DNA of 60,553 bases from Candidatus Pacearchaeota archaeon (GTDB lineage Archaea; Nanobdellota; Nanobdellia; Pacearchaeales; GW2011-AR1), in assembly GCA_016181895.1 (NCBI GenBank), contig JACOYL010000010.1, positions 1 through 60,553 on the forward strand, given 5' to 3'. The notes below the pieces were generated by a model, which was given only the letters and a program-made list of their open reading frames with translations, had not been told where the DNA came from and searched no databases. The position numbers and the translations under genes were made by a program. Of the stretch, positions 17,641 through 58,759 are shown piece by piece (position 1 is the first letter of the stretch; every line of letters begins with the position of its first letter).

Positions 17641-17652
17641 ATGGCCCCGATG
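17641..17652. repeat. att-like 12-bp duplication of the tRNA-Lys 3' end
   Basis: ATGGCCCCGATG is identical to 18528-18539. Confidence 0.7.
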
Positions 17653-17684
17653 ACCTTTAATATAAAGTGTAACACCTGATTTAA

Positions 17685-18449
17685 TTAACCTTTCTCCACA
17701 ATTAGCAATGCGTCTTTAAAATCAAGATAACCATTCTTCTGGAATTTCCTTATTTTTGTTCTAAATCTTTCACTTAGTCTTTTATTAGGATATTTGTTAG
17801 TATTATGAATAAACCTATAAAAATTATTCAAATCAAATAGATGATGGTTTCTAACCATGTCTCCCACATACATTCTCATTCTAAATCTTTTTACTCTCAC
17901 GTTTAATCCTCTTTTTCTGTAAAAATTAGCAATATACTCAGAATAGTTAAATTTAGGATAAACTTGTTTTAGCATTATATTATAATGGTCGCTTTTTTCT
18001 GGTAATGTTAATATCATAAGCTTCCCCCCTTTCTTAACAAACGAAAGAATTTTAATCAGCTGTTTTCTATAACCTTTTTCATTAATAGCCCAATAGTAAT
18101 TAGTATGAGAAGTAAAAACAAGATCATACTGCTTTTTTAGTCTAAGGGTGGAGAGAGTATTGACATAAGAATTTCCTATCTTATTTTCAAACTTCAAAAA
18201 TTTCTTTGCTGAAATAAGTGCCTTCTTATTTGGTTCAACTAAATCACAAATATATTTATTTTTGACTCTATCAAGTATTTGTTTAGTGGTATGTCCTTCC
18301 CCACAGCCAATATCAATAATTTTACCTCCTTTAATTTCTTCAGATATTTTTTGAACTATTTTGAACCAATCCTCTACAAAAGTTCTGATATAGATATTTT
18401 CATAAATATCTGCAAATTGTTTATCTCCCCAGAAATACCATTGAGTCAT
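17685..18449 (-). CDS. class I SAM-dependent methyltransferase
   Basis: IIDIGCGEG motif I; visibly AT-rich. Confidence 0.85.
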   Translation of the reverse strand: MTQWYFWGDKQFADIYENIYIRTFVEDWFKIVQKISEEIKGGKIIDIGCGEGHTTKQILDRVKNKYICDLVEPNKKALISAKKFLKFENKIGNSYVNTLSTLRLKKQYDLVFTSHTNYYWAINEKGYRKQLIKILSFVKKGGKLMILTLPEKSDHYNIMLKQVYPKFNYSEYIANFYRKRGLNVRVKRFRMRMYVGDMVRNHHLFDLNNFYRFIHNTNKYPNKRLSERFRTKIRKFQKNGYLDFKDALLIVEKG

Positions 18450-18528
18450 AATTTCTTCAAGAATTTTATATTAAAAAAGGTTAGCTTTTTGAATCCACCT
18501 TTAATACTATTGTTACAGAAATTATGGA

Positions 18529-18644
18529 TGGCCCCGATGGGATTTGAACCCACGACACCTGGATATCTTCGCACCTGTGCGAATCTTGTCATGTTCCGTG
18601 ATGCGTAAAAGTCCAGTGCTCTGACCAAGCTGAGCTACGGAGCC
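18529..18644 (-). tRNA. tRNA-Lys(UUU) with a 41-nt intron (18565-18605)
   Basis: GGCTCCG/CGGGGCC acceptor, CTGGA/TCCAG anticodon stem, TTT anticodon, GTTCAAATC; BHB helix CUUU:GAAG and intron stem GCATC:GGTGC. Confidence 0.95.
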
Positions 18645-18784
18645 TCTATTTTTAAAAATGAAAAGACAATTTAAAAGATTATCCTTCGCAAAAAAAACCG
18701 CAAGCTTTTTAAACTAATTTTTAGTTTCTTTTATTATCCTTAAGTTGCTAAATTAAACCACAAACTTTTTAAAGCCCTTCTAAG

Positions 18785-18994
18785 ATGCATGCCCTCCAAT
18801 CGAAACATTCCAAACTCAGCGAAAAAGACGCTGTTGAACTTTTGAAAAAACTCAATATTTCCAAATCGCAATTGCCCAAAATTCTTTTATCTGATTCAGC
18901 ACTGACGGAAAACTGCAAAGTCGGAGACGTTATAAAAATCGAAAGAGCATCCCCCGACGGCAAACCCGTATTGTATTTCAGGGTTGTCGTATAG
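18785..18994 (+). CDS. rpoH: RNA polymerase subunit H (Rpo5)
   Basis: QLPKILLSD...GDVIKIER...YFRVV. Confidence 0.9.
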   Translation: MHALQSKHSKLSEKDAVELLKKLNISKSQLPKILLSDSALTENCKVGDVIKIERASPDGKPVLYFRVVV

Positions 18995-19011
18995 TAAAAA
19001 CCTCGGGCGGG

Positions 19012-19104
19012 TTTTTACGAATCCCGCGACCGTTGATTTTTACAAATCCAGCAACCAATGAATTTACGAATCCAGCAATCGTGAACGAATCCCGCAACCA
19101 TCAA
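19012..19104 (+). repeat. 4 degenerate tandem units of about 19-26 bp in the rpoH-rpoB spacer
   Basis: core (tttta)CRAATCCMGCRAYC at 19012, 19037, 19063 and 19086; preceded by hairpin AAAAACC...GGTTTTT. Confidence 0.8.
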
Positions 19105-19122
19105 TTAAAGTCAAAACAAACC

Positions 19123-22630: not shown

Positions 22631-22631
22631 A

Positions 22632-22859: not shown

Positions 22860-22860
22860 A

Positions 22861-23079: not shown

Positions 23080-23080
23080 A

Positions 23081-28541: not shown

Positions 28542-28607
28542 TTCAAATAAATTAAGAACTCTTTAAAGTTTTCTCGGTTTCAACACAATATGATACAGCC
28601 TTTATAA

Positions 28608-28655
28608 TTAACACCAAGAATAAGAATTGTTTTTGATGCAGAGTTCTTTAAATCT
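28608..28655. repeat. cassette-boundary repeat A
   Basis: shares AAGAATAAGAATTGT with B and C, GCAGAGTTC with C and D. Confidence 0.75.
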
Positions 28656-28761
28656 TTGCTCATAAATCTGTATCGTCTGATTTTATTCTTCAATCATTTA
28701 TTGCTGTTCTTGGATTGCCTAACAAGAAAAGATTTATATAGTTTTTAAGCCAAGAACTGAT

Positions 28762-28959
28762 ATGGCTGAAATAAAAATAAAAATTCCTGATGAAATAAGA
28801 GAGAGAATGCAAAAAGAGAGTATAAATATTTCTGTATTAATTGAGAGACTGATAAAACATTTAGAGGAAGAAAAGGAAATGATAGACTGGTCGGTTAAAT
28901 TGCAAAGGGCTTCTAGAAAAGGCAGATTTGATGAACTGAAAAAAAGAGGATTAATATGA
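28762..28959 (+). CDS. VapB-like antitoxin
   Basis: 65 aa; MAEIKIKIPDEI; directly before a PIN gene. Confidence 0.7.
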   Translation: MAEIKIKIPDEIRERMQKESINISVLIERLIKHLEEEKEMIDWSVKLQRASRKGRFDELKKRGLI

Positions 28960-28962
28960 ATT

Positions 28963-29367
28963 ATGAAATTTGTAGTGGACACAAACGTTTTATTTACATT
29001 TTTTTGGGATAATTCTTTTACCCGAGGAATATTACTTGACCAAGATTTTGAATTTTTTGCGCCGGAATATGCCTTGGAAGAAATCAATGATAAAACCAAT
29101 GAAATAATTAGAAAAACAGGGATTTCACACGATAAATTCAAGGAACTAAGAACAGATTTGGCAATATGCGTTGAATTCATTCCAACAGGAGAATATTCGG
29201 ATTTTTTACAAAAAGTTTCGGACATTCCTGACAAAAATGATGCTGATTTCGTTGCATTGGCATTAAAACTTAAACTTCCTCTTTGGTCCAATGATAAACA
29301 ACTTAAAAAACAATCGTTGGTTAAAGTTTATTCAACAAAAGAAATTCTTAAACTATTATACAAATAA
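28963..29367 (+). CDS. PIN-domain (VapC-like) toxin
   Basis: VVDTNVL, DKNDADFVALA, LWSND. Confidence 0.9.
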   Translation: MKFVVDTNVLFTFFWDNSFTRGILLDQDFEFFAPEYALEEINDKTNEIIRKTGISHDKFKELRTDLAICVEFIPTGEYSDFLQKVSDIPDKNDADFVALALKLKLPLWSNDKQLKKQSLVKVYSTKEILKLLYK

Positions 29368-29374
29368 TTTTTCC

Positions 29375-29428
29375 TCAAGCATCTCCAATGTCTGTGAATT
29401 CTTAGCAGAAAGAATAAGAATTGTCTTT
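29375..29428. repeat. cassette-boundary repeat B
   Basis: 30/33 nt identical to D; 23 nt identical to C. Confidence 0.8.
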
Positions 29429-29468
29429 CTTAAAGTCTGATTATATTTATGCAATGCTTATATAATTC

Positions 29469-30098
29469 CTAATCAATTTGAAATAATTCTCTTTCTTCAT
29501 CAAGTCCATCTACTTCCTTTTTTCCGTCTGTACCGCAATGCAAAAGGGCTGCATAAGGATACATAAAGTCTTCTGGATTTTCTGAATGCCCATATCCAAG
29601 ATGATGTCCCTGTTCATGGACCGAAACATGGTAAAAAGGAAGTCCTGTTTCCGAAAGATTTAATTCAGGGCTTCTTTCTCTTATAACGCAATCAGTCCAT
29701 TCAGAGTAAAAGGGATATCCGGAAGATGAAAAAGTTGTATTATATACGATGTTTTTTATCCCTACAAAAGGGTCTCCCCCTGCATAAGCCATGACTTGAT
29801 GATTTAATTCCCCCAAATCCATAAAAAACGCCCTGTTCTCGGAAGTTTCATCAGATATATTTTCAATCTTCCAGTATCTTCCCGCTTCTATAAATAATTC
29901 CTGTTGCCAGCGTTCTAATTCCAATAGGTTAAATTCCAATGAGGGCTTTTCTTCCGGATAATTATCTCCTGTTTTAACATCGGGGTCATCCTTGCATGAA
30001 GAGAATCCAATTGCCAAAGCACCAATCAATAAGGTTCCCCCTAAAATTCTTGCCAGTCCGTTTGCAAACTTCCCATGCTCTCTGACCGATTTATTCAT
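29469..30098 (-). CDS. metzincin (matrixin-like) metalloprotease, lipoprotein-like
   Basis: HEQGHHLGYGH plus Met-turn FMYP; GFSSC lipobox-like signal. Confidence 0.8.
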   Translation of the reverse strand: MNKSVREHGKFANGLARILGGTLLIGALAIGFSSCKDDPDVKTGDNYPEEKPSLEFNLLELERWQQELFIEAGRYWKIENISDETSENRAFFMDLGELNHQVMAYAGGDPFVGIKNIVYNTTFSSSGYPFYSEWTDCVIRERSPELNLSETGLPFYHVSVHEQGHHLGYGHSENPEDFMYPYAALLHCGTDGKKEVDGLDEERELFQID

Positions 30099-30145
30099 TC
30101 AAAGGCAAAAAAAATCAGGTTTAAAAACAATGCGGTTTTAGTTTT

Positions 30146-30194
30146 CAACAGAAAGAATAAGAATTGTCTTTTGGGCAGAGTTCTAATTTTAATC
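30146..30194. repeat. cassette-boundary repeat C
   Basis: CAGAAAGAATAAGAATTGTCTTT...GCAGAGTTC; abuts the PemK stop. Confidence 0.8.
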
Positions 30195-30524
30195 TTATTT
30201 GATTAATTCTTTTAATTTTTTTGTTAATTCATCAAACACTTTCTTCTTTTTTTCAGAATTTAAATGGAAAAGGATTTTTGAAGCCATTTTCTTGGAAATT
30301 GTAAAGATATAATTCAATTTTATTACGCTATCTTTTATTGCTCCGTCTTTTCTGGATATAAAAATTCCTTCCATTTTTATATTGCTTGTAATTCCTGCCA
30401 CAACTATGTTATCATATTCTTCAAATAAAACAAGAACAGGTCTTTTTTTAATTTCAAATGTGTCTGTAAACTGAGTTTCAGCCAGAATTACATCTCCTGA
30501 CCTAAGCATTTTCCCATTCTTCAT
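30195..30524 (-). CDS. PemK/MazF-family toxin
   Basis: GDVILAETQFTD...KKRPVLVL...ITS...DSVIKLNYIFTI. Confidence 0.85.
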   Translation of the reverse strand: MKNGKMLRSGDVILAETQFTDTFEIKKRPVLVLFEEYDNIVVAGITSNIKMEGIFISRKDGAIKDSVIKLNYIFTISKKMASKILFHLNSEKKKKVFDELTKKLKELIK

Positions 30525-30726
30525 CCTCTTTATTATTCCAGAGTTCTCTCATTTTCTGCTGTTGTATTTTATGGAGAAATTCATCATATTGATTTCTTTT
30601 TCTCAAGGTTTTGAAAATATCAATCATTTTCTTAATTAATTCTTCATATGTTTGTCTTGGATGCTCTCTTATTTCCTTTAATGCCTCTAGTACGGATTTA
30701 TTTAATTGAATTGTTGTTTTTTCCAT
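30502..30726 (-). CDS. antitoxin partner of the PemK-like toxin
   Basis: MEKTTIQL...TYEELI; acidic tail LWNNKEDEEW; overlaps the toxin start. Confidence 0.7.
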   Translation of the reverse strand: MEKTTIQLNKSVLEALKEIREHPRQTYEELIKKMIDIFKTLRKRNQYDEFLHKIQQQKMRELWNNKEDEEWENA

Positions 30727-30776
30727 ATATAATTAACTATAGAGAATTATATAAAGTTTTCTGTTTTCAATTATTT

Positions 30777-30850
30777 TCAAGCATCTCCGATGTCTGTGAA
30801 TTTTTAACACCAACTATAATTCTTGTTTTGAGAGCAGAGTTCGTTAATCT
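30777..30850. repeat. cassette-boundary repeat D (longest)
   Basis: TCAAGCATCTCCGATGTCTGTGAATT...GCAGAGTTC. Confidence 0.8.
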
Positions 30851-30852
30851 AA

Positions 30853-31152
30853 CTAACCTGCAAGAATGTTCTCGCAAAAATCAATATGTTTTGCTCCGTC
30901 TTCAACATTTAACTGGCAGCATGTTACTATTTCTTTACTATTTTGCAATGATTTTATATAATCCAAATCATGATTTTTGCATGTTAATTCTCTTTCCTGA
31001 TGATTCAAATTTTCAGTTTTTTCAAAATAATAGCTCTGATAATTAATCAGGATTTTTTGGGAATTTAAAATCCCAAACAAAAGAACTAAATTAGCAATTA
31101 AAATTATAATTAAAATAATTATTCCGAGAATATATTTTTTTTCTGTTTTCAT
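30853..31152 (-). CDS. small membrane-anchored hypothetical protein
   Basis: N-terminal TM helix; 4 Cys in the C-terminal half. Confidence 0.6.
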   Translation of the reverse strand: MKTEKKYILGIIILIIILIANLVLLFGILNSQKILINYQSYYFEKTENLNHQERELTCKNHDLDYIKSLQNSKEIVTCCQLNVEDGAKHIDFCENILAG

Positions 31153-31165
31153 GTTAATAAATCCT

Positions 31166-31315
31166 TTAATTTATTTGTTGAATTTTCAATAACTTTTTTA
31201 TTATTTCATTTATTTTATCTAAATAATGACTTTCAATATCCCCTATTTTTGATACGAGCCTTTTCTTATCAAGCGTTTGAAGTTGAAATACTAATGCTGC
31301 GGAATCTTTTTCCAT
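31166..31315 (-). pseudogene. C-terminal fragment of a PemK/MazF toxin
   Basis: EKDSAALVFQLQTLDKKRLVSKIGDIE..YLDKINEIIKKLL; N-terminal half absent. Confidence 0.7.
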
Positions 31316-31316
31316 T

Positions 31317-31952
31317 TCATTGTCTTATGCAAACCAAATATTGAACATAAGGTGCGTTTGTCAATGCAGTTGAACCTCCGTCGCTTGGTTTCTGGGAAGA
31401 AACATTTACAACATCTACTGCGTGGGTATGGATTGATTCAGTTGAAGTTGAACCAGTAACATCATGAATGTGCGCCGCAGATGTGTGTGTATGGTCTGCG
31501 CTTTGCCACCCGCCGTTGAAATCAAATGTTCCTGTCACAGAAGTGTTGAATGGAAAGAACGCGCTTGATTCATAACCGTTAAGATATTTTGAATTGAAAG
31601 AATAAGGAACTCTTGCAAGTTGCGAAGTGCTTTGCAATGTTCCGTCACGATAATAGCAAAGCCAGTACTGGTCTGTGAAATTCAAATTAACATTTTCAAG
31701 ATAATAACTTACAATTCCTCTTACATCTGTGGCTTGCGTTGTCGCATTTGCAAAAACAATATTATCCACATTGGTGCAACCGTTGGTTGTTGAAATGTTA
31801 AATCCAAACTTGAAAGTTCCCGTTTGAATGTTTCCCGAAGAATCGCGGACTTGAATGTTAAGATGCATGTCGTCTTCTATCGCGGCAGATGAAATCAAAG
31901 TTATTGAAAATAATAATGCGATTAACAGCAGATAGTTCAACCCCTTTTTCAT
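31317..31952 (-). CDS. secreted protein with tail-fibre-tip-like C-terminus
   Basis: signal peptide; HxH repeats; ends NAPYVQYLVC like the 36505 ORF. Confidence 0.7.
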   Translation of the reverse strand: MKKGLNYLLLIALLFSITLISSAAIEDDMHLNIQVRDSSGNIQTGTFKFGFNISTTNGCTNVDNIVFANATTQATDVRGIVSYYLENVNLNFTDQYWLCYYRDGTLQSTSQLARVPYSFNSKYLNGYESSAFFPFNTSVTGTFDFNGGWQSADHTHTSAAHIHDVTGSTSTESIHTHAVDVVNVSSQKPSDGGSTALTNAPYVQYLVCIRQ

Positions 31953-31969
31953 TGAAAGCCAAGGAAAAA

Positions 31970-31986
31970 GAAATTTATAAATTTAT
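31970..31986 (-). promoter_or_regulatory. TATA-box promoter (leaderless)
   Basis: GAAATTTATAAATTTAT, 18 nt from the ATG at 31952; same offset as 32461 and 33286. Confidence 0.65.
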
Positions 31987-31998
31987 TGAGAGGTTTCT

Positions 31999-32202
31999 CT
32001 ATTCAGAAAGGTTCATAGAGAATTCTTTTAGATTTCCTTTTGGAATCCTGTCAGAAGCGTCTATAATTTCTATCGCGATAATCTTATTGTTTTTATCCAT
32101 ATCAACTATTATGCCTTCGTCTATTTCTTTGCTAATTTCATATTCTCCGTCCTGGAACTTTATACGCATAATATCGTTTTTTGCATCAAAATTGATTTTC
32201 AT
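31999..32202 (-). CDS. DUF2283-family putative antitoxin
   Basis: INFDAKNDIMRI...DMDKNNKIIAIEI. Confidence 0.8.
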   Translation of the reverse strand: MKINFDAKNDIMRIKFQDGEYEISKEIDEGIIVDMDKNNKIIAIEIIDASDRIPKGNLKEFSMNLSE

Positions 32203-32443
32203 TTTTCATATATCTTTTAGGCCCAGCATAATATGCAGTTATAACTATATAAGTTTTTGCATTCTCATTCTCTTCAAATACAACTCTAAGCAATTTATTT
32301 TTGATAATCTTATGGGCAATTTTTCTATTCCTTTTGCCTTTTACAATTTCGTCAGGATTTTTTAAAGCATCTTCAATAATTTCTTTACTAAATTTTCTGT
32401 CTTTAATTGTATCCTCAGCATAATCAGTATAGATTATCTTCAT
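32186..32443 (-). CDS. DUF4258-like putative toxin
   Basis: MKIIYTDYAEDTIKDR...LRVVFE...IVITAY; start reassigned to ATG 32443. Confidence 0.75.
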   Translation of the reverse strand: MKIIYTDYAEDTIKDRKFSKEIIEDALKNPDEIVKGKRNRKIAHKIIKNKLLRVVFEENENAKTYIVITAYYAGPKRYMKNENQF

Positions 32444-32460
32444 AAACTCAAAAAAGAGGG

Positions 32461-32477
32461 GAAATTTATAAATTTGT
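32461..32477 (-). promoter_or_regulatory. TATA-box promoter (leaderless)
   Basis: GAAATTTATAAATTTGT, 18 nt from the ATG at 32443. Confidence 0.65.
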
Positions 32478-32498
32478 TGCCCCATAAAACATTGGTTC

Positions 32499-32861
32499 TT
32501 AAACACGATGTATCGCCTGCTCCTCCCAAAGTTTTTCAAAGGAATAAAAATAATATGAAAGCTCTGATAAACTTTTTGATAAAATAACTTCCCCTTCTTT
32601 CATGACTTTTATTTGCATATAAAGAGGCATTAGTTCAAAAATGTGTATGTCATATTTTGGTTTTTTTCCTTGAATTATAAGAGTATCGCGATATATTTCT
32701 CTTGCTTTACCAATATTCCCAGCGATAATACAAATATCAATATCGCTTTTCGGGGTGCTGTTTTCTGTGGCATAGGAGCCATAAACTAAAACACCTAAAG
32801 ATTCGTTTTTAAATTTGCCAAAATCTTTTTTTATTTCATGTTTTATTGTTTTGGGTATCAT
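32499..32861 (-). CDS. minimal nucleotidyltransferase (MNT antitoxin)
   Basis: YGSYAT....KSDIDI. Confidence 0.88.
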   Translation of the reverse strand: MIPKTIKHEIKKDFGKFKNESLGVLVYGSYATENSTPKSDIDICIIAGNIGKAREIYRDTLIIQGKKPKYDIHIFELMPLYMQIKVMKEGEVILSKSLSELSYYFYSFEKLWEEQAIHRV

Positions 32862-33268
32862 TATGTTAATTTTTTAAAAACATTTTTTAAATGAGGCATG
32901 ATTTCAACAATTGATTTTTTAGCCAGAATATCATCAATATTATTATATTTATGAATTATCCTGTTTCTCAAGCCGTTTGCTTCATTCAAAATCTTCGCAT
33001 CTTTTTTATCTATTATCTTGACATTAACTAATTTCTCTGTGTTTTTATAATCATCTTCAACAATTTTATCACTATCTTTTATTTTCATTGCAACAATGTC
33101 AAATATCGCCTCAACAATTTCTTGAAACGCTTTATAGCATGCGAGTTTTGTTTTTTCATCATCTTCCGCAATCCACTCCCTTATTTCAGATAATCTCTTT
33201 TCAACAAGTTCTGCTTTTTCCTTGTATCTTTTTTCTCTTATTTTTATGGGTGTTTTATTCTCATTCAT
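32861..33268 (-). CDS. HEPN (DUF86) ribonuclease toxin
   Basis: GLRNRIIHKY (Rx4H). Confidence 0.88.
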   Translation of the reverse strand: MNENKTPIKIREKRYKEKAELVEKRLSEIREWIAEDDEKTKLACYKAFQEIVEAIFDIVAMKIKDSDKIVEDDYKNTEKLVNVKIIDKKDAKILNEANGLRNRIIHKYNNIDDILAKKSIVEIMPHLKNVFKKLT

Positions 33269-33285
33269 TTAATTTACAAAATAAG

Positions 33286-33302
33286 GAAATTTATAAATTT
33301 AT
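33286..33302 (-). promoter_or_regulatory. TATA-box promoter (leaderless)
   Basis: GAAATTTATAAATTTAT, 18 nt from the ATG at 33268. Confidence 0.65.
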
Positions 33303-33377
33303 TGTAAAATTTATTGTCGCAAGTTTTATAAATGATTTTCAGCAACATTAAATATGTAAATTTTTTACAAAATTTCC

Positions 33378-34425: not shown

Positions 34426-35040
34426 ATGTCAGAGCAAAAAACAATTCAAAATTTCAAAATATTCGACTTGTATGACTTGTCGGAGGTTTCAGTTTCGGAT
34501 TTGGGATTAAAACCAGTGATAAATCTTCAACCGAAATTGATTTTGAAGAGTCATGGAAGAAACGTGCAAAAAATGGGGCAGACAAAAGTCAATGTTGTCG
34601 AGAGATTGATGAACAAGCTTGCTGTCGCAGGACATCGGGGAAAAAAGCACAAAATAGAATTGGGAAGAATCACTGGAAAATACACGAAAAACATGGGAAT
34701 AATTCTCGAAGCATTAAAACTTGTTCATGAAAAAACAAAACAAAATCCCGTGCAGATTCTTGTGAAGGCGATTGAAAACGCCGCGCCAAGAGATGAAATA
34801 ACAGTGATTGAATACGGCGGTGCGCGTTATCCTCAGGCGGTTGACGTTTCTCCATTGAGGCGCGTGAATCTTGCATTGAAGCACATCATTCATGGAGCAT
34901 CGGACAAGGCTTTCAATAAAAAGAAGACGATTGTCCAGGGGCTTGCGGAGGAAATAATTCTTGCCTCCGAGAACAACGGAGAAAGTTTTGCAATCAGGAA
35001 AAGAAACGAGGCCGAGAAACAAGCAGACAGTGCGAGATAG
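34426..35040 (+). CDS. rps7: 30S ribosomal protein S7 (uS7)
   Basis: AIENAAPRDE, AVDVSPLRRV, E.QADSAR end. Confidence 0.97.
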   Translation: MSEQKTIQNFKIFDLYDLSEVSVSDLGLKPVINLQPKLILKSHGRNVQKMGQTKVNVVERLMNKLAVAGHRGKKHKIELGRITGKYTKNMGIILEALKLVHEKTKQNPVQILVKAIENAAPRDEITVIEYGGARYPQAVDVSPLRRVNLALKHIIHGASDKAFNKKKTIVQGLAEEIILASENNGESFAIRKRNEAEKQADSAR

Positions 35041-35078: not shown

Positions 35079-35255
35079 ATGGAAAAAGTAAATGTAAGTA
35101 AATCTGCAATAAATGATTTGATAAGGTTAAAAGAAGAATTTGATTCTGTAATTGAATCTCTTGAATTGATTAATGATGATAAATTTATGAGTTCTTATAA
35201 AAAATCCAAGGAGCAGATTAAAAAAAGAGATTTTGATAATTGGGATGAGTTATAA
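35079..35255 (+). CDS. RelB-like antitoxin (58 aa)
   Basis: Hand translation MEKVNVSKSAIND...IESLELINDDKFM...WDEL; overlaps the toxin start. Confidence 0.7.
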   Translation: MEKVNVSKSAINDLIRLKEEFDSVIESLELINDDKFMSSYKKSKEQIKKRDFDNWDEL

Positions 35256-35493
35256 AATTCTTCCTACAAAGGAATTTTCAAACGATTTTAAAAAGATTAC
35301 TTCAGATTTTCAGAAAAGAATTAAAAATAAAATTGAAGAAGTTGCTGAAAATCCTGAAAGATATAAACACCTGCATTATGATTTAAAAGGGAGTTGTAGG
35401 ATAAGGGTTGGAAAATTAAGAGTTATTTTTTCTTATGATATTGATAAAAAGGAACTTTATCCCGAGAAAATAGTTTTTGGACATAATTATTGA
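35245..35493 (+). CDS. RelE/ParE-family toxin
   Basis: YKIL.TKEFSNDFKK...RIRVGKLRVIF. Confidence 0.88.
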   Translation: MSYKILPTKEFSNDFKKITSDFQKRIKNKIEEVAENPERYKHLHYDLKGSCRIRVGKLRVIFSYDIDKKELYPEKIVFGHNY

Positions 35494-35501: not shown

Positions 35502-35528
35502 AAAAAGCAGGCCGATAGCGCGAGATAA
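35502..35528 (+). repeat. displaced rps7 3' end, copy 2
   Basis: AAA AAG CAG GCC GAT AGC GCG AGA TAA = KKQADSAR*. Confidence 0.85.
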
Positions 35529-35566: not shown

Positions 35567-35860
35567 ATGAGTTATATTTTTGAGATTAAAGACAAGACAG
35601 GAAGAAAAATTCGTTTAACAAAGAAGCAATGGAAGCATATTACAACAAAACATCCCGATATGTCTGGAAAAGAGGAAGAAATAAAACAAGTTTTGGAAAG
35701 GCCCGATATTATCCTGCCGCATAAATTTGATGAAATGTCAAGAAATTATTATTTGTATGATAAAAATGAAAAAGCATATTTATTTGTTTCAGCAAGATAT
35801 TTAAACGGCGAGGGTTTTATTATAACGGCATTTTATACTCAACATATTAGGAAAAAATGA
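35567..35860 (+). CDS. putative RNase toxin (BECR/DUF4258-like)
   Basis: RLTKKQWKHI..KHP...YLNGEGFIITAFY; coupled to a DUF2283-like gene. Confidence 0.7.
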   Translation: MSYIFEIKDKTGRKIRLTKKQWKHITTKHPDMSGKEEEIKQVLERPDIILPHKFDEMSRNYYLYDKNEKAYLFVSARYLNGEGFIITAFYTQHIRKK

Positions 35861-36096
35861 CAGACAGAAAAATAGAATTAAACTATGAACCTGAAACAGA
35901 TTTACTGGAGATTTTTATAGGGGACCCTGTGCCGTCTTATTTTAACGAGATAGATGATGATTTGTTTGAGGGACATAGTAAGGAGACAAATGAATTAACA
36001 GGATATAAAATATTTAATCTGAGCAAGAGAAAAAAACAGGAATGGATTAAAAGCGTTAAAATCTCTTTGCCTGCTAATGTTAACATAACTTCTTGA
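35857..36096 (+). CDS. DUF2283-like antitoxin
   Basis: NYEPETDLLEIFIG. Confidence 0.7.
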   Translation: MTDRKIELNYEPETDLLEIFIGDPVPSYFNEIDDDLFEGHSKETNELTGYKIFNLSKRKKQEWIKSVKISLPANVNITS

Positions 36097-36097
36097 T

Positions 36098-36154
36098 TAT
36101 TTAAACGGCGAAAGTTTTGTTATAACAGCATATTTTGTTAGAAATATAAGTTAA
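36098..36154 (+). pseudogene. 18-codon tail of a homologous toxin gene
   Basis: YLNGESFVITAYFVRNIS*; exactly 300 bp after the same motif at 35798. Confidence 0.75.
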
Positions 36155-36155
36155 A

Positions 36156-36462: not shown

Positions 36463-36486
36463 AAGCGGGCTGATAGCGCGAGGTGA
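36463..36486 (+). repeat. displaced rps7 3' end, copy 3
   Basis: AAG CGG GCT GAT AGC GCG AGG TGA = KRADSAR*. Confidence 0.8.
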
Positions 36487-42256: not shown

Positions 42257-42286
42257 CTATTTTGCGATAATTACGATTTTTCCTCT
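42257..42286 (-). repeat. displaced ileS 3' end
   Basis: AGA GGA AAA ATC GTA ATT ATC GCA AAA TAG (RGKIVIIAK*) repeats RGQIVI at 42319-42336. Confidence 0.7.
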
Positions 42287-45132
42287 GCCTGAACCTTTGG
42301 GCGATGCGACGGACTTAAAATTACAATTTGTCCTCTTTTATCTTTTATCTGAAAATCAATCTTATTTTTAAATCTTTCCTTGATAGTTGTAACATTTTCG
42401 GGAATTATCTGGATTTTTCTGGAATTCGTCCTTTCTTGAATGAATTTTTCATGGAATTTCAAAATCTCCCTGAAATCCGCGCTTGTTTCAATTATCAATT
42501 CAATCGTGTCTTTTTTGACAAGCCCGAGTTTTTTCCTGAATGCTTGAATCTGCCTTGATAATTCTCGGGCATATCCTTCTGCTTCCAATTCAGGAGTTAT
42601 TTTGGTGTCGAGTTCAACCATAACTCCAATACCCTTTCTTACTCTAGCGGCGGCATTTTGAAAAACAATATTTTTAACATTAAGTTGGCTTTTGATTATC
42701 TCTTTTATATCATCATAACCAAAATTGCTAACTTTTGTTACTACTGCTTTTGCCAAAGGCCATCTCAAACCAATTCCTGCTTTGTCTCTTTGAGCAAGTC
42801 CTTCTTCTATTATTATCATTGCTCTATGCATTTCAGATTCCAAAGCTTTCAAAATTTTTTTCTTATCTGCTTTCGGCCAATTTGAAAGATGCACTGAATT
42901 GTTTGAAAAATTCCGGTAAATGAATTCCGTTATGTAAGGCGCGAACGGAGCCAAAAGAAGGGAAACCTTTTCCAGAACTTCTCCGATTATTTCCTTTGTG
43001 TCTTCCCTGTCTCTTGTGATTTTTATGTAGCCGCGGGAAAAATCATTCACGACAAAATCCGAAATGCTCAAAAATGCCTTGTCTATTGAATAACCCTCAA
43101 GTTCTTTTGTAACTTTGTCAATCAAGGAATTTAATTTGCTTAAAATCCATTTGTCTTCAATTTGCATTTTGCATTTTTTGTTTCCAAGCTGCTTGTGGTA
43201 ATTGTTGCAATTGTAAAGAATTGTAAGGAAAGGAATCACGGATTCCGCCATCAGATTAAATGAAAATCTTTTCGGTTCTCCTGGATTTGTCGTGCAAAAC
43301 TGAAGCCTTATTGAATCAACGCCGGATTGCTCAATCATCTCCTTTGGATTTATCACATTTCCCTTTGACTTTGACATTTTTTCTCCTTTCTCGTCGACAA
43401 CATGCCCCGCGCAAATCACGTTTTGATATGCCTTGCTGTTGAACAACAAAACGCCGAGAACATGCAAAGTGTAAAACCATCCTCTTGTCTGGTCTATGGC
43501 TTCTGAAATAAAATTATAGGGAAAATGTTTCTTGAAAAGTTCCTTGTTTTCAAAAGGATAATGAAACTGCGCAAAGGAAGCAGAGCCGGAATCATACCAG
43601 CAGTCAATCACGTCCAAAACCCGAGACATTTCGCTTTTGCATTTAGGACATTTCAATTTTATCTTGTCAATTTCCGGTTTGTGCAAATCAATATCTTCTA
43701 TTTTTCTTGTTGATTTCTTTTTCAATTCGTCAATGCTTCCGATAATTTCCTCGTTTCCGCATTTGCATTTCCAAACAGGCAACGGAGTTCCCCAGAATTT
43801 AAACCTGGAAAGCGCCCAGTCTTTCGCGCCTTCAAGCCAATTTCCAAATCTGCCGTCCTTTATGTGTTCGGGAAACCAGTTTATTTTCTTGTTTTCCTTC
43901 ACAAGCTTGTCTCTTATTTTTGAAACTTTGATAAACCAGGAATTTATCGCATAATAAAGCAAGGGCGCGGAGCATCGCCAGCAAAAAGGATATGAGTGCG
44001 TTATTTTTTCTTTCTTGTAAAGAAATTTCCTGTCTTTCAAATCCTGAATTATTTTTTCCTCCGCGTCTTTGACAAAAATTCCTCTGAACCTTGGAACTAT
44101 GTCCAAAAACTTTCCGTCCTGTCCGACCGTGTGGATTTTTGGGAGATTCAATTTTGTTCCCAAGTTGTAATCGTCTTCCCCGTACATCACGGCGGTGTGG
44201 ACAATTCCGGTTCCTTCATCTGTTGTGACAAAATCTCCCGAAACAATTTTGTGCGAGTTTTTATTTTGCAGTTGTTTTATGTCATACAAAGGCTCGTATT
44301 CAATTCCGACAAGTTTTTTTCCCTTCATCTCGTCGACAACATTGTATTCGTCTTTAAGAATTGAAAGCCTTTCCTTGCTCAAAATAAATTTTTCTCCGTT
44401 CTTCAGTTTTACTTTCACATAATTTATTTTTTCTCCGACTGCAAGAGCGGCATTTCCAGGAAGAGTCCAGGGAGTTGTTGTCCATGCCAAAAAATATTCG
44501 TCTTTTTTGTTCTTCACCTTAAAAGCTATGTAAATTGAATCCTCGCTCACATCCTTGTATCCGAGAGCCACTTCGTGGCTTGACAAAGGTGTGGAACAAC
44601 GGGGGCAAAAAGGCACCACTTTTTTTCCCTCGTAAAGCATTTCTTTTTTGTACAATTCCTTCAAGCTCCACCAAACGCTTTCAATGTATTTGTTGTCAAG
44701 AGTAACATAAGGATTTTCCAGGTCAATCCAGTATCCCAATTTCTTCGTGGATTTCTCCCAGTCGGAAATGTTTGAAAAAACGCTTTCCCTTGCTACTTTA
44801 ATGAATTTCGAAATCCCAAGATTTTCAACGTCTTTTTTTGAATTCAATCCGAGCTGTTTTTCAACCTGAACTTCAACAGGCAAGCCGTGGCAATCCCAGC
44901 CGCCTTTTCTAGGAACAGAGAAACCCTGCATGTATTTGAATTTGCAGATTACATCCTTGAAAGTACGAACTTCGAAATGATGCAGTGCAGGCGGAGCATT
45001 CGCAGTCGGCGGTCCTTCAAGAAAAGAAAACAGCGGTTTTTTCTTATCGTAAAGAACTGCTTTTTTTATTTCCTTCTCGTGCTTTTTCCAGACTTTCTCT
45101 GATTCCTCTTCAACTTTCTTGAAATCGTACAT
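42271..45132 (-). CDS. ileS: isoleucyl-tRNA synthetase (IleRS2-type, ALHH motif)
   Basis: GPPTANAPPALHH, GWDCHGLP, WTTTPWTLP, KMSKS; start reassigned to MYDFK. Confidence 0.96.
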   Translation of the reverse strand: MYDFKKVEEESEKVWKKHEKEIKKAVLYDKKKPLFSFLEGPPTANAPPALHHFEVRTFKDVICKFKYMQGFSVPRKGGWDCHGLPVEVQVEKQLGLNSKKDVENLGISKFIKVARESVFSNISDWEKSTKKLGYWIDLENPYVTLDNKYIESVWWSLKELYKKEMLYEGKKVVPFCPRCSTPLSSHEVALGYKDVSEDSIYIAFKVKNKKDEYFLAWTTTPWTLPGNAALAVGEKINYVKVKLKNGEKFILSKERLSILKDEYNVVDEMKGKKLVGIEYEPLYDIKQLQNKNSHKIVSGDFVTTDEGTGIVHTAVMYGEDDYNLGTKLNLPKIHTVGQDGKFLDIVPRFRGIFVKDAEEKIIQDLKDRKFLYKKEKITHSYPFCWRCSAPLLYYAINSWFIKVSKIRDKLVKENKKINWFPEHIKDGRFGNWLEGAKDWALSRFKFWGTPLPVWKCKCGNEEIIGSIDELKKKSTRKIEDIDLHKPEIDKIKLKCPKCKSEMSRVLDVIDCWYDSGSASFAQFHYPFENKELFKKHFPYNFISEAIDQTRGWFYTLHVLGVLLFNSKAYQNVICAGHVVDEKGEKMSKSKGNVINPKEMIEQSGVDSIRLQFCTTNPGEPKRFSFNLMAESVIPFLTILYNCNNYHKQLGNKKCKMQIEDKWILSKLNSLIDKVTKELEGYSIDKAFLSISDFVVNDFSRGYIKITRDREDTKEIIGEVLEKVSLLLAPFAPYITEFIYRNFSNNSVHLSNWPKADKKKILKALESEMHRAMIIIEEGLAQRDKAGIGLRWPLAKAVVTKVSNFGYDDIKEIIKSQLNVKNIVFQNAAARVRKGIGVMVELDTKITPELEAEGYARELSRQIQAFRKKLGLVKKDTIELIIETSADFREILKFHEKFIQERTNSRKIQIIPENVTTIKERFKNKIDFQIKDKRGQIVILSPSHRPKVQAEEKS

Positions 45133-45176
45133 GAAGAAATAAAGTGAGAAGGGATTTTTAAAAGTAATCAAAACAA

Positions 45177-56889: not shown

Positions 56890-56928
56890 GAAAACCTTAA
56901 AAGTTGCTAATTCTGTATTTTTGTATCG

Positions 56929-57009: not shown

Positions 57010-57027
57010 TAAAACCTAAAAAAGAAA

Positions 57028-57753
57028 ATGGATGAAGATTTAAATCTTTGGAAAAAAGAATTTAGAGAAAGTAAAGATTGGAAAGAAAAAAGGGAAAAAT
57101 TTATTGTAGAAAAAGGGAGAAAATGTGAATGGTGTGGTTCCACAGAATTTTTAACACCAGCTCATAAAGATTGTTGTATTCCATTAAAGATTCAATTTAA
57201 CGATAAAGAATTTAATACAAACTTTATAATTCTTAATAGCGCATTAAAAACTAATTATTATATGATTTTTAATGATTATTTAAGAGAGATAATAATTAAA
57301 GACTTACCAAAAGAATATTTTAAGAAAGATAAAAATTCTGAAAATGGAACTTCATCAAGCAAATTAAAAAAAGACGCTTGGAAGAATCTTTACCAAAATG
57401 AAGAAATTAGAAGAATTCTCAATCCAGTTGTAGAGAAAACAAATAACATTTTCAAAGAATGGTATTCAAATTTTGATAATTGTTTATTATTATGTAGAAG
57501 ATGTCATTATGCACAGAGTAAAGGTCAGTTTTTATGTGGATGCAAAAAAAGTTATTATTTCATTGAACATGGTTCTTGCCCAAACTGTTATCCAAAAGAG
57601 AAAAAAGAAAAGATAACAAAAAGGAAGAAAGAAGAAGAGGAATTTATAAAAGAACAAGAAAAATTTGAGAGAGAAATAGATGAAAGGGAAAAAAGGATGT
57701 TTGAAAAGTTAGAAGCAATGGAAAAGCAAAATAAAAGGATAAAAAGAATTTAA
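57028..57753 (+). CDS. HNH-like Zn-binding protein with a large insertion
   Basis: WKEKR...CEWCG...H and distant LLLCRRCH; extra Cys cluster; charged tail. Confidence 0.6.
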   Translation: MDEDLNLWKKEFRESKDWKEKREKFIVEKGRKCEWCGSTEFLTPAHKDCCIPLKIQFNDKEFNTNFIILNSALKTNYYMIFNDYLREIIIKDLPKEYFKKDKNSENGTSSSKLKKDAWKNLYQNEEIRRILNPVVEKTNNIFKEWYSNFDNCLLLCRRCHYAQSKGQFLCGCKKSYYFIEHGSCPNCYPKEKKEKITKRKKEEEEFIKEQEKFEREIDEREKRMFEKLEAMEKQNKRIKRI

Positions 57754-57755
57754 CA

Positions 57756-57821
57756 TCACTTCCCCTTCACCATCTTCCCCAATTTCCCCTTCCCCACCAA
57801 TTCAATCATTATGTCCGCGCC
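57756..57821 (-). repeat. displaced grxD 3' end
   Basis: GADIMIELVGKGKLGKMVKGK* versus the grxD end GADILVELAGKGELGKMVGK*. Confidence 0.85.
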
Positions 57822-57871
57822 AGTTAGGAACAAATTCACTCCGATAACAACAAAGGCATTAATTAACGCAA

Positions 57872-58120
57872 CTAAGAATCAGAGATGGAGATGTCCAAAG
57901 GAATAGACATGTTCAATCTTTTAAGAATTGTTTTCAGTATTTCTGTTCTTTTTCCGAACGCCACAATGCCTATGCTCTTCACTTCATTTGTTTTTGAATC
58001 TCGAGTTATCAAAACTTCCGAATCCAATTTTTCAGTATATTCTGTTTTTGGCGGAACTCCAAATGATACTTCCAAATAATCTCCTTCTTCATCGTAATAA
58101 ATGTCAACCGATTCTTTCAT
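57872..58120 (-). CDS. orphan DUF2283-like antitoxin
   Basis: IYYDEEGDYLEV...SIGIVAF. Confidence 0.78.
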   Translation of the reverse strand: MKESVDIYYDEEGDYLEVSFGVPPKTEYTEKLDSEVLITRDSKTNEVKSIGIVAFGKRTEILKTILKRLNMSIPLDISISDS

Positions 58121-58227
58121 TCGATCCTCTGCGCGAAATATGCGGATATGATAAATCCTTCTCCGTTTAAATATTTAACTAAGACAATCATGAATTTATT
58201 TGAAGAGTTTCTTTCTTTATAATATTT
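58117..58227 (-). pseudogene. C-terminal fragment of the YLNGEG-type toxin
   Basis: KYYKERNSSNKFMIVLVKYLNGEGFIISAYFAQRIE*; ATGA overlap with the antitoxin. Confidence 0.7.
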
Positions 58228-58360
58228 CTCTTGGGTCTAATTCTCCTGTTTTTAACCCTTGGATTATTTTCTCAAATTCTTCATAAACTTTATCAGGAAG
58301 ATTGTTAATTTTTTTATTAATTTCTTCGGAGAATTCAATCTTCCATTTTTTATTTTTCAT
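58217..58360 (-). pseudogene. N-terminal fragment of a RelE-like toxin (47 aa)
   Basis: MKNKKWKIEFSEEINKKINNLPDKVYEEF..., truncated. Confidence 0.5.
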
Positions 58361-58444
58361 AAAAAATTAACATAATTATATTATAAAAATATTTAGGGAT
58401 TGTAAAAAGGGATAAACGTGAAAGAGTTTATGATTAACAAGAAC

Positions 58445-58759
58445 TTATTTCCCCACCATCTTCCCCAACTCGCCTTTCCCAGCGAGTTCAACCAATATAT
58501 CGGCTCCGCCGATGAATTTTCCATTGACGAATAATTGCGGAATCGTCGGCCAGTTCGCGTATTCTTTCACGCCTTCGCGAATTGAATTGTCCGAAAGAAC
58601 ATCGAATGATTCAAACTGAATTCCCAAATCCTTTAATGTGTCCGCAGATTTCATTGAAAATCCGCACATAGGATTCTCAGGGGTTCCCTTCATGAAAAGA
58701 AAAACCTTGCTTGATTTTATCAGATTCTCTATCTGTTTTTTTGTTTCTGTCGTTAACAT
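58445..58759 (-). CDS. grxD: monothiol glutaredoxin (Grx4 family)
   Basis: FMKGTP..PMCGFS, WPTIPQLFV.G.FIGGAD. Confidence 0.95.
   Translation of the reverse strand: MLTTETKKQIENLIKSSKVFLFMKGTPENPMCGFSMKSADTLKDLGIQFESFDVLSDNSIREGVKEYANWPTIPQLFVNGKFIGGADILVELAGKGELGKMVGK

Follow-up and report, generated by a model that had tools for sequence, protein, structure and literature searches.

Toxin-antitoxin (TA) modules have long been known as highly mobile without machinery of their own. DNA transposons and casposons are marked by terminal inverted repeats, a target duplication of fixed length and a transposase or Cas1, and the attC sites of integrons are imperfect palindromes with R''/R' cores at the cassette ends. 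Insertion with long target duplication was described for restriction-modification complexes (Nobusato et al. 2000; Furuta, Abe & Kobayashi 2010, PMC2853133), in which the duplications are long and variable and mobility genes are absent. Furuta et al. required a duplication of more than 30 bp, which separates such insertions from att sites, and zero archaeal cases passed their screen (PMC2853133).

Direct repeats that lie at the 3ʹ end of a tRNA or protein gene are classically taken as the signature of an integrase (PMC6563490). The att sites of archaeal integrated elements, 8–69 bp long, lie in the 3ʹ-distal regions of tRNA or protein genes, with ef-2 and a diphthamide-synthesis gene among the targets; tandem arrays occur, and sometimes the element provides a new stop codon (PMC6563490). 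Archaeal 3ʹ-end integration is credited to She et al. 2002 in the part of Krupovic et al. 2019 (PMC6563490) that treats it. Displacement of effector-immunity modules at Rhs, CDI and T6SS loci is attributed to Jackson 2009 and Poole 2011 in the relevant passages of Kirchberger et al. 2017 (PMC5361080), and that paper proposes homology-facilitated illegitimate recombination for T6SS and Rhs loci, with no integrase involved. Integrons have been extended to archaea by Ghaly et al. 2022, who reported attC arrays in Nanoarchaeota/DPANN (PMC9668308).

The window analyzed here, a stretch of 60,553 nucleotides, comes from a Candidatus Pacearchaeota archaeon, a tiny symbiotic member of the DPANN with a 0.74-Mb genome, available as a 24-contig MAG that is 89.8% complete. 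In this genome, compact cassettes of 0.4–0.9 kb, mostly type II TA pairs, have been inserted at the very 3ʹ end of conserved genes. The insertions in the window each duplicated the last 12–66 nt of the target; the gene-attached copy leaves the gene intact, and the distal copy stays beside the old downstream neighbor.

Displaced gene ends in the window

The tRNA-Lys(UUU) gene, which ARAGORN missed, ends in the 12-mer CATCGGGGCCAT (18528–18539), and the same sequence recurs on the far side of a methyltransferase gene (Table 1). In the sister genomes G001 and G004, 3ʹ fragments of tRNA-Lys also lie downstream of tRNA-Lys, giving three genomes of the genus in all, and the repeat measures 11, 12, or 41 nt in the different events.

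Table 1. Coordinates of the features discussed, with the basis of each assignment
Feature	Position	Strand	Basis
Displaced tRNA-Lys 3ʹ end, 12/12 nt	17641..17652	-	2 matches in window vs 0.01 expected
254-aa SAM-dependent methyltransferase, cargo between the tRNA-Lys ends	17685..18449	-	Pfam Methyltransf_23, Ubie_methyltran
tRNA-Lys(UUU) gene with intron	18529..18644	-	Rfam RF00005, 57.6 bits; anticodon read from sequence
4.8-kb cassette block, membrane-protein gene to S12	28542..33377		Pfam; low G+C
Ribosomal protein S7 gene	34426..35040	+	ORF; orthologues in 35/41 relatives
Cassette 1: ParD-like antitoxin 35079–35255, ParE toxin 35233–35493	35079..35493	+	Pfam ParE_toxin
Displaced S7 tail copy 1, KKQADSAR*, in frame	35502..35528	+	After cassette 1
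Cassette 2, four parts behind S7 copy 1	35567..36395	+	Pfam, repeat D5
PBECR2/DUF4258-like toxin	35567..35860	+	Pfam
First DUF2283-like antitoxin	35857..36096	+	Pfam
Remnant, last 19 codons of the PBECR2/DUF4258-like toxin	36098..36156	+	Repeat D5; peptide match
Second DUF2283 antitoxin	36156..36395	+	Pfam
Displaced S7 tail copy 2, KRADSAR*, in frame	36463..36486	+	After second TA cassette
ileS	42271..45171	-	Pfam tRNA-synt_1, Anticodon_1
Displaced glutaredoxin tail, 24 codons + stop, peptide FLTGADIMIELVGKGKLGKMVKGK*	57756..57830	-	BLOSUM local score 83
Cargo behind glutaredoxin: 82-aa gene 57872–58120, 47-aa ORF or TA debris	57831..58444	-	ORFs
Monothiol glutaredoxin gene	58445..58759	-	Pfam Glutaredoxin

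At the S7 locus, the working tail (35014–35040) encodes EKQADSAR*, and two further tails follow, each behind a cassette. Cassette 1, a ParDE pair with a TATA-like box at approximately 35050, is absent from G001, where a single S7 tail is followed 152 nt later by ArgRS with no cargo between them. Between copy 2, the outermost, and the stop of a convergent 249-aa gene (36505–37254) there are 18 nt. In G004, the homologue of this gene ends about 15 nt from the real S7 stop, which places copy 2 in the ancestral position and context. Among the S7 tail pairs, 14 of 17 differences fall at third codon positions, and at six third-codon positions, the same six in both comparisons, the working tail departs from the displaced copies, indicating that it is a different allele from them. 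Copies 1 and 2 remain alike for about 20 nt past the stop codon; the duplication behind them therefore ran across the gene end and involved no replacement. No mosaic 3ʹ part was seen in the S7 gene.

At the DNA level, the S7 cassette shares 84% identity in its ParE gene with the ParE gene behind S7 in archaeon GW2011_AR19, whereas identity between the two S7 genes is only 72.5%; the lower divergence of ParE suggests that the cassette was transferred to the same S7 site. Two other genera also have displaced S7 tails. Repeated events at one gene stack cassettes: G399 has two at S7, and G261 has a 7.5-kb island there, with repeats of approximately 60 nt and Pfam-scanned genes that include no integrase. 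Across the different S7 events, the repeats are 15, 20, 24, 27, and ~60 nt long.

The working tail of the glutaredoxin gene (58454–58507) recurs at 57768–57821 with 76% identity over 54 nt (repeat D6), and the displaced tail ends 3 nt from the stop of a convergent gene (57028–57753). The 82-aa protein encoded in between has no Pfam match; by eye, it resembles DUF2283 antitoxins. In G002 and G003, the glutaredoxin orthologue lacks a tail copy and is followed by different genes.

The 4.8-kb block contains a PIN TA pair, a matrixin-like lipoprotein gene, and MazF, DUF4258/DUF2283, and MNT/HepT TA pairs. It is absent from G001, in which the corresponding gap is 132 nt, and is bounded not by a recognized gene tail but by a separate four-copy repeat.

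An earlier note on this DNA had listed five loci with displaced ends. Those at tRNA-Lys, S7 (two copies), the PBECR2/DUF4258-type toxin gene, and glutaredoxin hold, and ileS does not: its best downstream match, 11/12 nt, is at chance level, and no peptide match was obtained. The C-terminus of ileS is altered relative to the sister genome G004.

Gene-tail copies across the genome and in relatives

The 60-nt tail of each gene was compared with the 4 kb downstream at a score of at least 32, with reverse-complement sequences and internal gene segments as controls. Ten genes genome-wide had a tail copy within this distance, compared to 0–1 in the controls. At a score of at least 28, by our own count from the list, 13 of 27 matches were 600–800 nt from the gene, compared to approximately 1.4 expected. 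The targets outside the window in the same genome included Pop5-like, GatB-like, SRP54-like, and OGG-like genes, and the cargo in the genome-wide set was typically 630–800 nt. Cargo coincided with G+C troughs of 25%–29%. The duplications measured 12, 24–27, 54–66, and 59 nt in the window and 28–36 nt elsewhere in the genome, and reached 110 nt in relatives. According to Pfam, most cargo consisted of TA pairs (ParDE, PBECR2/DUF2283, PIN, MazF, and MNT/HepT), together with a methyltransferase, a hydrolase, and surface proteins. The GatB locus has its own empty site: in G003, which like G001 belongs to the genus of our archaeon, a single GatB tail lies 2 nt from the convergent neighbor with no cargo, and the distal GatB copy in our genome sits in native context, its flank CCTCCAA being common to G001. 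The cassettes are thus insertions at gene ends, neither chance matches nor artefacts.

In the Pop5-like gene, the duplicated stretch lies entirely within the coding region; in an EF-2 case, as in S7 copies 1 and 2, it spans the stop codon; and in C7, it covers the gene start and not the gene end. Distal copies at loci elsewhere have lost their stop codons. For pairs detected only at the DNA level, the differences at the first, second, and third codon positions numbered 15, 8, and 26, and the pooled pattern was compatible with duplication at insertion followed by drift (p = 0.16). No motif was common to the at least 15 unrelated repeat sequences compared, no attC-like palindromes or inverted repeats were found at the tail copies, and Rfam at gathering threshold returned tRNAs only.

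Other DPANN genomes and metagenomes yielded 113 loci homologous to the ParDE cassette. Direct repeats of 17–110 nt flanked about 20 of 98 ParDE loci, compared to 1 in the null, with cargo of 419–840 nt. The family occurs in both orientations and in many targets, among them EF-2, a diphthine-synthase-like gene, and S7. It is present at S7 in three genomes (the window, L112, and L129) and behind the diphthine-synthase-like gene in three (L136, L122, and L134), and cassettes that share a target are not each other's closest relatives. Some flanking repeats were perfect or nearly so (48/48, 27/27, 24/24, and 62/63). Ten ParDE events showed no inverted termini; together with duplications of 12–110 nt and a genome without Cas1 (PF01867), this differs from DNA transposons and casposons.

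A profile search with working positive controls found no tyrosine recombinase (PF00589) in the whole genome, which is about 90% complete, and tblastn with 30 Xer-like proteins of the family gave zero matches. There was no credible serine recombinase (PF00239) in the whole genome and no recombinase among the cargo ORFs scanned with Pfam. Of 151 related genomes, 139 have 1–5 Xer-like recombinases each. The assembly may lack viruses or plasmids; no circular contigs were found, and neither a donor nor an empty/filled polymorphism within one population was seen.

Two observations of the earlier note agree with these results: nothing contradicted the absence of an integrase from the 60 kb, and the cargo is mostly TA modules. 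Its view that displaced ends differ mostly at synonymous positions and look like orthologous alleles rather than fresh duplications suits S7, and its model, in which a donor allele replaces the 3ʹ end, suits S7 and one EF-2 case. Neither is supported as a general rule in view of the ileS result, the codon positions of the DNA-only pairs, the perfect repeats, the decayed distal copies, the span of S7 copies 1 and 2, the S7 gene without a mosaic 3ʹ part, and the gene-start duplication.

The scar at gene ends has previously been described only for bacterial restriction-modification genes. Like those insertions, the present ones are small addictive complexes flanked by long direct repeats of target sequence that vary in length, with no mobility genes in the Pfam-scanned cargo, no inverted repeats in the ten ParDE events, and a repeat that aligns once to the empty site (S7 in G001 and GatB in G003); the restriction-modification repeats, too, often overlap the 3ʹ end of the neighboring gene. 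Here, however, the cargo is type II TA pairs and other small genes instead of restriction-modification genes, which makes the cassettes a variant of insertion with long target duplication and not a member of it. The hosts are DPANN archaea, the repeats are shorter, at 12–66 nt in the window, cassettes stack at one gene, and many events are found in one 0.74-Mb genome. The scar with TA cassettes may show how "addiction" genes move.

How the cassettes may have been inserted

As a tentative first choice, we read the gene-end copies as scars of duplicative insertion by host recombination acting on DNA that carries short homology to the target. The inserting agent would be the host's own recombination and repair machinery, and the incoming DNA a circularized fragment or a fragment with one-sided homology, bringing the cassette together with a short match to the target. 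The ends of conserved genes and of tRNAs would be the best targets because perhaps nothing else has stayed similar in lineages that diverged; in a compact genome, the survivors would be boundary insertions that restore both neighbors; and TA pairs may dominate because addiction modules would resist deletion promoted by the flanking direct repeats. In favor of this reading are the excess of tail copies over controls, the empty sites at S7 and GatB, the native context of the distal copies there, the recurrence at S7 in other genera, the repeat-flanked ParDE loci, the ten ParDE events without inverted termini, the lack of recombinase genes in the genome, repeat boundaries that vary at one target, the AR19 cassette, and the separate allele of the working S7 tail. 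Against it, a prior event joining the target fragment to the cassette is needed, the presence of one cassette family in many targets is poorly explained by pure homology guidance, the S7 gene lacks a mosaic 3ʹ part, the genome is incomplete and most related genomes have Xer-like recombinases, and repeats at gene 3ʹ ends are the classical sign of an integrase. It is possible, though doubtful, that TA cassettes in ultra-small archaea are recombinase-free mobile elements, with the copy of a gene or tRNA end as a portable homology arm for host recombination. If so, integron-like arrays would form behind essential genes, held there by addiction, and this would account for how TA modules actually move.

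Site-specific integration, in which the repeats are att sites and the cassettes are mini-elements moved by integrases in trans or addictive remnants of larger elements, seems unlikely to us. Archaeal integrated elements have exactly such a layout (PMC6563490), with direct repeats from a gene 3ʹ end, tRNA, ef-2 and diphthamide-type targets, re-use of a site in tandem, and inserted DNA that can bring a new stop codon; the tRNA-Lys remnants in three genomes of the genus and the Xer-like recombinases of most family genomes are in line with it, as is the incompleteness of our own genome. Those elements, however, have a tyrosine integrase or a casposase and measure several kb or more, whereas none of more than 25 events here has an integrase inside or adjoining, a Xer-like recombinase is nearby in only 1 of 33 genome-derived ParDE loci (chance level), and our own genome has none. 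The lack of a common motif, the absence of a fixed crossover position at a single target (S7 and tRNA-Lys), and repeats of up to 110 nt also argue against it. The cargo is uniformly 0.4–0.9 kb even where the repeats are identical, so no decay intermediates are seen, and no viral contig with the ParE of the S7 cassette or an S7-tail attP was found.

Duplicative insertion without homology, by a long break of variable stagger or by template switching, would make both copies the recipient's own, diverging later. We know of no enzyme that makes staggers of 12–110 nt. This and two further observations lead us to rate it as rather improbable: the S7 and EF-2 pairs differ at synonymous sites, and the ParDE family recurs at S7 and at the diphthine-synthase-like gene, contrary to what random targeting predicts. 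It would nevertheless account for the perfect and near-perfect repeats, the pooled codon-position pattern and lost stops, the duplications within a coding region (Pop5-like), across a stop (S7 copies 1 and 2, and EF-2), or over a start (C7), and the spread of one cassette family over many targets in both orientations, and double-strand breakage was proposed for the restriction-modification cases by Furuta et al. (PMC2853133).

The earlier note had called the arrangement integron-like, which survives as an analogy only. TA-rich arrays of single-function cassettes, which in integrons can also lie far from an integrase, the attC arrays of DPANN, and the four-copy repeat that punctuates 28.6–30.8 kb and recurs on another contig would suit a true integron platform, in which an IntI-like integrase captures cassettes at attC-like sites. 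Such a platform is very improbable given a genome without a tyrosine recombinase or IntI, tail copies without attC-like palindromes, repeats that are the local gene end and differ at each locus, and a promoter-like box of its own in at least the ParDE cassette. Chance matches or assembly artefacts, which a 24-contig MAG and some short repeats (12–27 nt) might suggest, are scarcely credible beside the control counts and the tRNA-Lys expectation, copies in frame with stop codons, the same architecture in assemblies of unrelated studies, and repeat copies that differ from each other, unlike the products of assembly errors.

The PBECR2 toxin locus in cassette 2 is the closest fit to the displacement at Rhs, CDI, and T6SS loci, where, in the account cited above, an incoming module gives a new gene end and the old end is pushed downstream, leaving arrays of orphan ends. 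In that account the partner gene moves along and the displaced ends are the variable toxin domains that polymorphic toxins carry, whereas in our genome they are conserved and come from housekeeping genes and a tRNA, with cargo that bears no relation to the target gene. Tandem duplication followed by deletion would yield an identical layout at the PBECR2 locus, namely toxin, antitoxin A, toxin-tail remnant, and antitoxin B. The last 59 nt of the toxin gene (35798–35856) are 76% identical to the remnant, and the corresponding peptides read YLNGEGFIITAFYTQHI and YLNGESFVITAYFVRNI, respectively.

Tail copies behind conserved genes

Compact cassettes without a recombinase are inserted at gene boundaries, mainly at 3ʹ ends, each with a target duplication of 12–110 nt; the insertions stack, are missing from sister genomes and recur across DPANN archaea. 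The source genome of the window comprises 736 kb in 24 contigs (36% G+C, ~90% complete), and the window itself carries the archaeal rpoH-rpoB-rpoA-NusA...S12-S7 cluster, with Pacearchaeota, Woesearchaeota and Nanoarchaeota MAGs as the close relatives of its genes. Troughs of 25–29% G+C coincide with the cargo, in which Pfam found toxin-antitoxin (TA) components (ParE; PBECR2/DUF4258 with DUF2283; PIN; MazF with DUF7557; MNT with HepT), together with a matrixin-like protein, a nucleotidyltransferase and a methyltransferase.

The earlier note had listed five loci at which the tail of a gene, that is, its last codons or nucleotides, is repeated beyond inserted DNA (tRNA-Lys, rps7 twice, a toxin gene, ileS and grxD), and four of the five were borne out. 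The final 12 bases of tRNA-Lys had two matches in the window against 0.01 expected, and the S7 tail (rps7) recurs after two successive cassettes. The final 59 nt of the PBECR2/DUF4258-type toxin gene are repeated 300 nt downstream, and the final 24 codons of the glutaredoxin gene, including its own stop codon, 629 nt downstream. The ileS locus did not hold, as the best downstream match to its tail was 11/12 nt, on par with controls, and no peptide match was found. The IleS C-terminus differs from its orthologue in the same-genus genome G004 by an extra ...LSPSHRPKVQAEEKS*, and the ancestral stop context (AAATAG then TTAC) is still present 14 nt past the current stop; the difference could be a small indel or an excision footprint.

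Positions of tail copies and other features in the window
Feature	Position	Remark
tRNA-Lys	18529-18644 (-)	Intron-containing; found by Rfam, anticodon read as UUU; ARAGORN reports tRNA-Ser only
Copy of tRNA-Lys end, CATCGGGGCCAT	17641-17652	Past a 254-aa SAM-methyltransferase gene
rpoB-rpoA gap	22367-23079	Three small ORFs (87, 75 and 72 aa)
Possible NusA-like displaced tail	27549-27572	FFGKELRI vs working FFGRELRVV*; 250 nt after the gene
Four-copy repeat	28608-30847	~45-70 nt, core AAGAATAAGAATTGTCTTT...GCAGAGTTC
S7 working tail	ends 35040	EKQADSAR*
S7 displaced tail, copy 1	35502-35528	KKQADSAR*; after ParDE cassette
S7 displaced tail, copy 2	36463-36486	KRADSAR*; after PBECR2/DUF2283 cassette
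518-aa gene	39717-41273	Weak transglutaminase-like match
TrmB-family regulator	41313-42119	Marginal Resolvase match
ileS 3ʹ-end difference	42230-42330 (-)	
241-aa ORF	57028-57753	Beside tRNA-Ser

A downstream search similar to that proposed in the earlier note was run across the whole genome with crude ORF calls, comparing the last 60 nt of each gene with the following 4 kb. Ten genes had tail copies scoring at least 32, compared to none in the reverse-complement control and one in the control with internal gene segments. Further clear copies lie behind Pop5-, OGG-, FtsY-, GatB- and SRP54-like genes, identities that were read from the sequences and not via a Pfam scan, and the cargo behind these five reads as MazF-, PIN/VapC- and AbrB-type TA pairs. 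By our own count, 13 of the 27 matches scoring at least 28 are located 600–800 nt from the gene, compared to an expectation of about 1.4, indicating that the cargo has a characteristic size. Insertion scars of this uniform type number at least 10 in the 0.74 Mb, and chance or an assembly artefact was rejected on the basis of these controls and the recurrence in unrelated assemblies. Scanning gene starts for duplications yielded a weaker signal and a single clear case, L241 (contig C7 of the same genome, 19000-22000), in which a 27/28-nt copy lies 655 nt upstream. The duplicated unit spans the initial 25 nt of a 165-aa gene and the stop of the preceding gene, which overlaps them, and the repeat surrounds a 200-aa gene that is NYN-like by eye; this is the same scar type, at a gene start.

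Related genomes and the ParDE cassette family

The empty sites that the earlier note had called for exist in same-genus genomes, for S7 in G001 and for GatB in G003. G001 is collinear with the window, and its S7-ArgRS spacing is 152 nt vs 2.5 kb in the window, its interval before S12 is 132 nt vs a 4.8-kb cassette block, and its rpoB-rpoA spacing is 198 nt vs 706 nt; in G003, GatB adjoins its convergent neighbor without a cassette. In G004, a gap of ~15 nt separates the S7 stop from the end of a convergent gene, and the homologue of this gene in the window is 18 nt away from S7 copy 2, indicating that the outermost copy is in the ancestral position. The ~20 nt past the stop codon are common to copies 1 and 2. 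Among 401 genomes of the order, 88 matched a degenerate ADSAR* pattern and the reversed control gave 0. Multiple matches occurred in the genome under study (three) and in G399, G261 and G113 (two each). Displaced S7 tails surround a hydrolase in G399 and a 7.5-kb surface-protein island in G261, with no integrase among the scanned genes of the island, while the double match in G113 was rejected as contig-end overlap only. At tRNA-Lys, G001 and G004 carry 3ʹ-half fragments 75–180 nt past the gene (loci L228 and L227, respectively), and the motif GAAATTGCATnnTATGAATnAnGATTTGAA between the fragments is common to both.

The displaced tails had been read as orthologous alleles, not fresh duplications, which held for S7 and the EF-2 pair and failed as a general rule. 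In the loci first collected, a set including the S7 copies that were themselves found via peptide, 39 of 64 differences fell at third codon positions. For pairs found at the DNA level only, the differences by codon position were 15, 8, and 26; the third-position share was above one third (p = 0.003) and not different (p = 0.16) from the ~45% expected when copies start identical, the working one gains synonymous changes and the displaced one drifts. These pairs, and the stop codons lost in several distal copies, fit duplication followed by drift. S7 copies 1 and 2 agree at six third positions against the working tail, indicating that the latter is a distinct allele, and all five differing sites of the EF-2 pair are third positions. 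Sliding-window identity of S7 to G001 and to a further relative, G002, was flat at ~78%, and since all relatives are equally distant, it is uninformative on a mosaic 3ʹ part. Matches of displaced tails to sister alleles gave weak hints only, with synonymous sites saturated within the genus: the distal GatB copy and its flank resemble the tail and flank of G001, and the displaced S7 copies are similar to the most frequent allele of the family.

The S7-linked ParE has 113 homologous loci with 52–83% identity in genomes and metagenomes. Among the 98 with enough flank, flanking direct repeats scoring at least 16 were found at 20 (a few being one locus sampled in both collections), compared to 1 in the reversed-sequence null; across DPANN archaea, roughly one in five loci of this cassette family therefore bear the same scar. 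The repeats are 17–110 nt long and every sequence is different, with cargo of 419–840 nt. Many are the ends of long ORFs, stop codon included, such as the EF-2 end at locus L121 and the end of a diphthine-synthase-like gene at L136 (the same kind of gene lies upstream in L122 and L134); at L139 four copies of the tail of a 223-aa gene lie between four cassettes. Other repeats do not obviously coincide with gene ends. No terminal inverted repeats were found on the ParDE cassettes, nor homologues of the cassette inner flanks in other contexts. Archaeon GW2011_AR19 carries the same cassette behind S7, and a displaced ...DSAR* copy comes after it. DNA identity between AR19 and the window is 84% for the toxin genes vs 72.5% for the S7 genes, indicating that the cassette is younger than the host split, yet occupies the same site. 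At L121 (3330-3860 of a Woesearchaeota contig), a TTTTAAATA box past the stop is part of the duplicated EF-2 end, whose two copies are now 5ʹ of the antitoxin and 5ʹ of the native downstream gene, respectively. A promoter may have been copied along with this gene end.

Candidate routes of insertion

As to the enzyme responsible for insertion, we infer that host machinery is the best candidate and favor host recombination, which would act on incoming DNA bearing short target homology, through a Campbell-type single crossover or one-sided homology-facilitated recombination. Five observations favor this route: repeat length varies even at one target, neither a shared motif nor a recombinase was found, conserved sequences serve as targets, S7 is hit again by the same cassette in hosts that have diverged, and the S7 tails represent distinct alleles. 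The proposal that a donor allele replaces the 3ʹ end is one admissible version of this explanation and not a general rule. Host recombination does not account for the first event at each new target.

A serious rival is an integrase that moves the cassettes in trans. Archaeal integrated elements are classically recognized by this very layout (PMC6563490), Xer-like genes (1–5 each) occur in 139 of 151 related genomes, and the genome bin under study is 90% complete; however, PF00589 had no match in this bin, with 14/14 control genomes positive, and a tblastn search with 30 of the family's Xer-like proteins found nothing in it. Beside ParDE loci, an Xer-like match occurred at 1 of 33, which equals the chance expectation. 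There were no circular cassette contigs among 41 whole short contigs, and no viral contigs with this ParE or an S7-tail attP, except for one chance match within a phage ribonucleotide reductase gene. The absence of integrases and transposases reported for the window also extended to the Pfam-scanned cargo, and the genome lacks PF00589, Cas1 and a credible Resolvase. Homology-independent duplicative insertion is also a serious rival, to which the perfect repeats at some ParDE loci (48/48, 27/27, and 24/24), the many targets and the gene-start case point. TA enrichment is expected in every model, since direct repeats promote deletions that only addictive cargo withstands.

The remaining element classes were rejected. 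The sole Resolvase match, inside the TrmB-family regulator, was marginal (23.8 bits, cut-off 23.3) and was taken as spurious; the regulator is conserved and syntenic in G004. A diversity-generating retroelement, considered because of the repeats at gene 3ʹ ends, was rejected by reasoning on three grounds: insufficient repeat length, housekeeping genes as targets, and differences without adenine specificity. A transposon or casposon was rejected owing to absent inverted termini, variable duplication length and absent Cas1, and an integron owing to the absence of IntI and of attC-like palindromes at the tail copies.

To our knowledge, TA modules encode no mobility function. They are among the most horizontally mobile genes (PMC2701414), and in the literature examined we came across no description of their insertion into chromosomes. 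The closest described kind to the cassette scars is insertion with long target duplication by restriction-modification systems, in which the duplications are long and variable, mobility genes are absent and the mechanism is unknown; a screen for it returned zero archaeal cases (PMC2853133). The significance of the scars lies in their bearing on how TA modules move: they tie TA mobility to this little-studied kind of insertion, known so far from bacterial restriction-modification systems, and broaden it to include archaea and arrays stacked behind essential genes. If host recombination alone suffices, it would be a general, testable gene-capture route in organisms without integrases and would explain the variable regions just behind conserved genes in streamlined genomes. 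The PBECR2 toxin locus also resembles the C-terminal displacement of Rhs, CDI, and T6SS systems (PMC5361080).

Other genes and repeats in the window

The small ORFs that fill the rpoB-rpoA gap had no Pfam match, and no rpoB tail copy was found in the gap. The possible displaced tail behind the NusA-like gene has no stop codon and a weak score. The 518-aa gene lies where the G+C content of the window is lowest (25%); G004 lacks it in the syntenic TrmB-ArgRS interval, and no repeat was found flanking the gene. The stop of the 241-aa ORF lies 3 nt from the displaced glutaredoxin tail, and its CxxC...H...CxxCH spacing is HNH nuclease-like by eye, with no Pfam match at E < 0.01. The four-copy repeat, of a different kind, sits between the PIN, matrixin-like and MazF cassettes and reads ...NSAxKTILIxxxxN... 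on the minus strand. Two more copies surround an MNT/HEPN-like pair on contig C1 of the same genome, at about 6498 and 7614, indicating that this repeat, unlike the gene tails, moves between loci.
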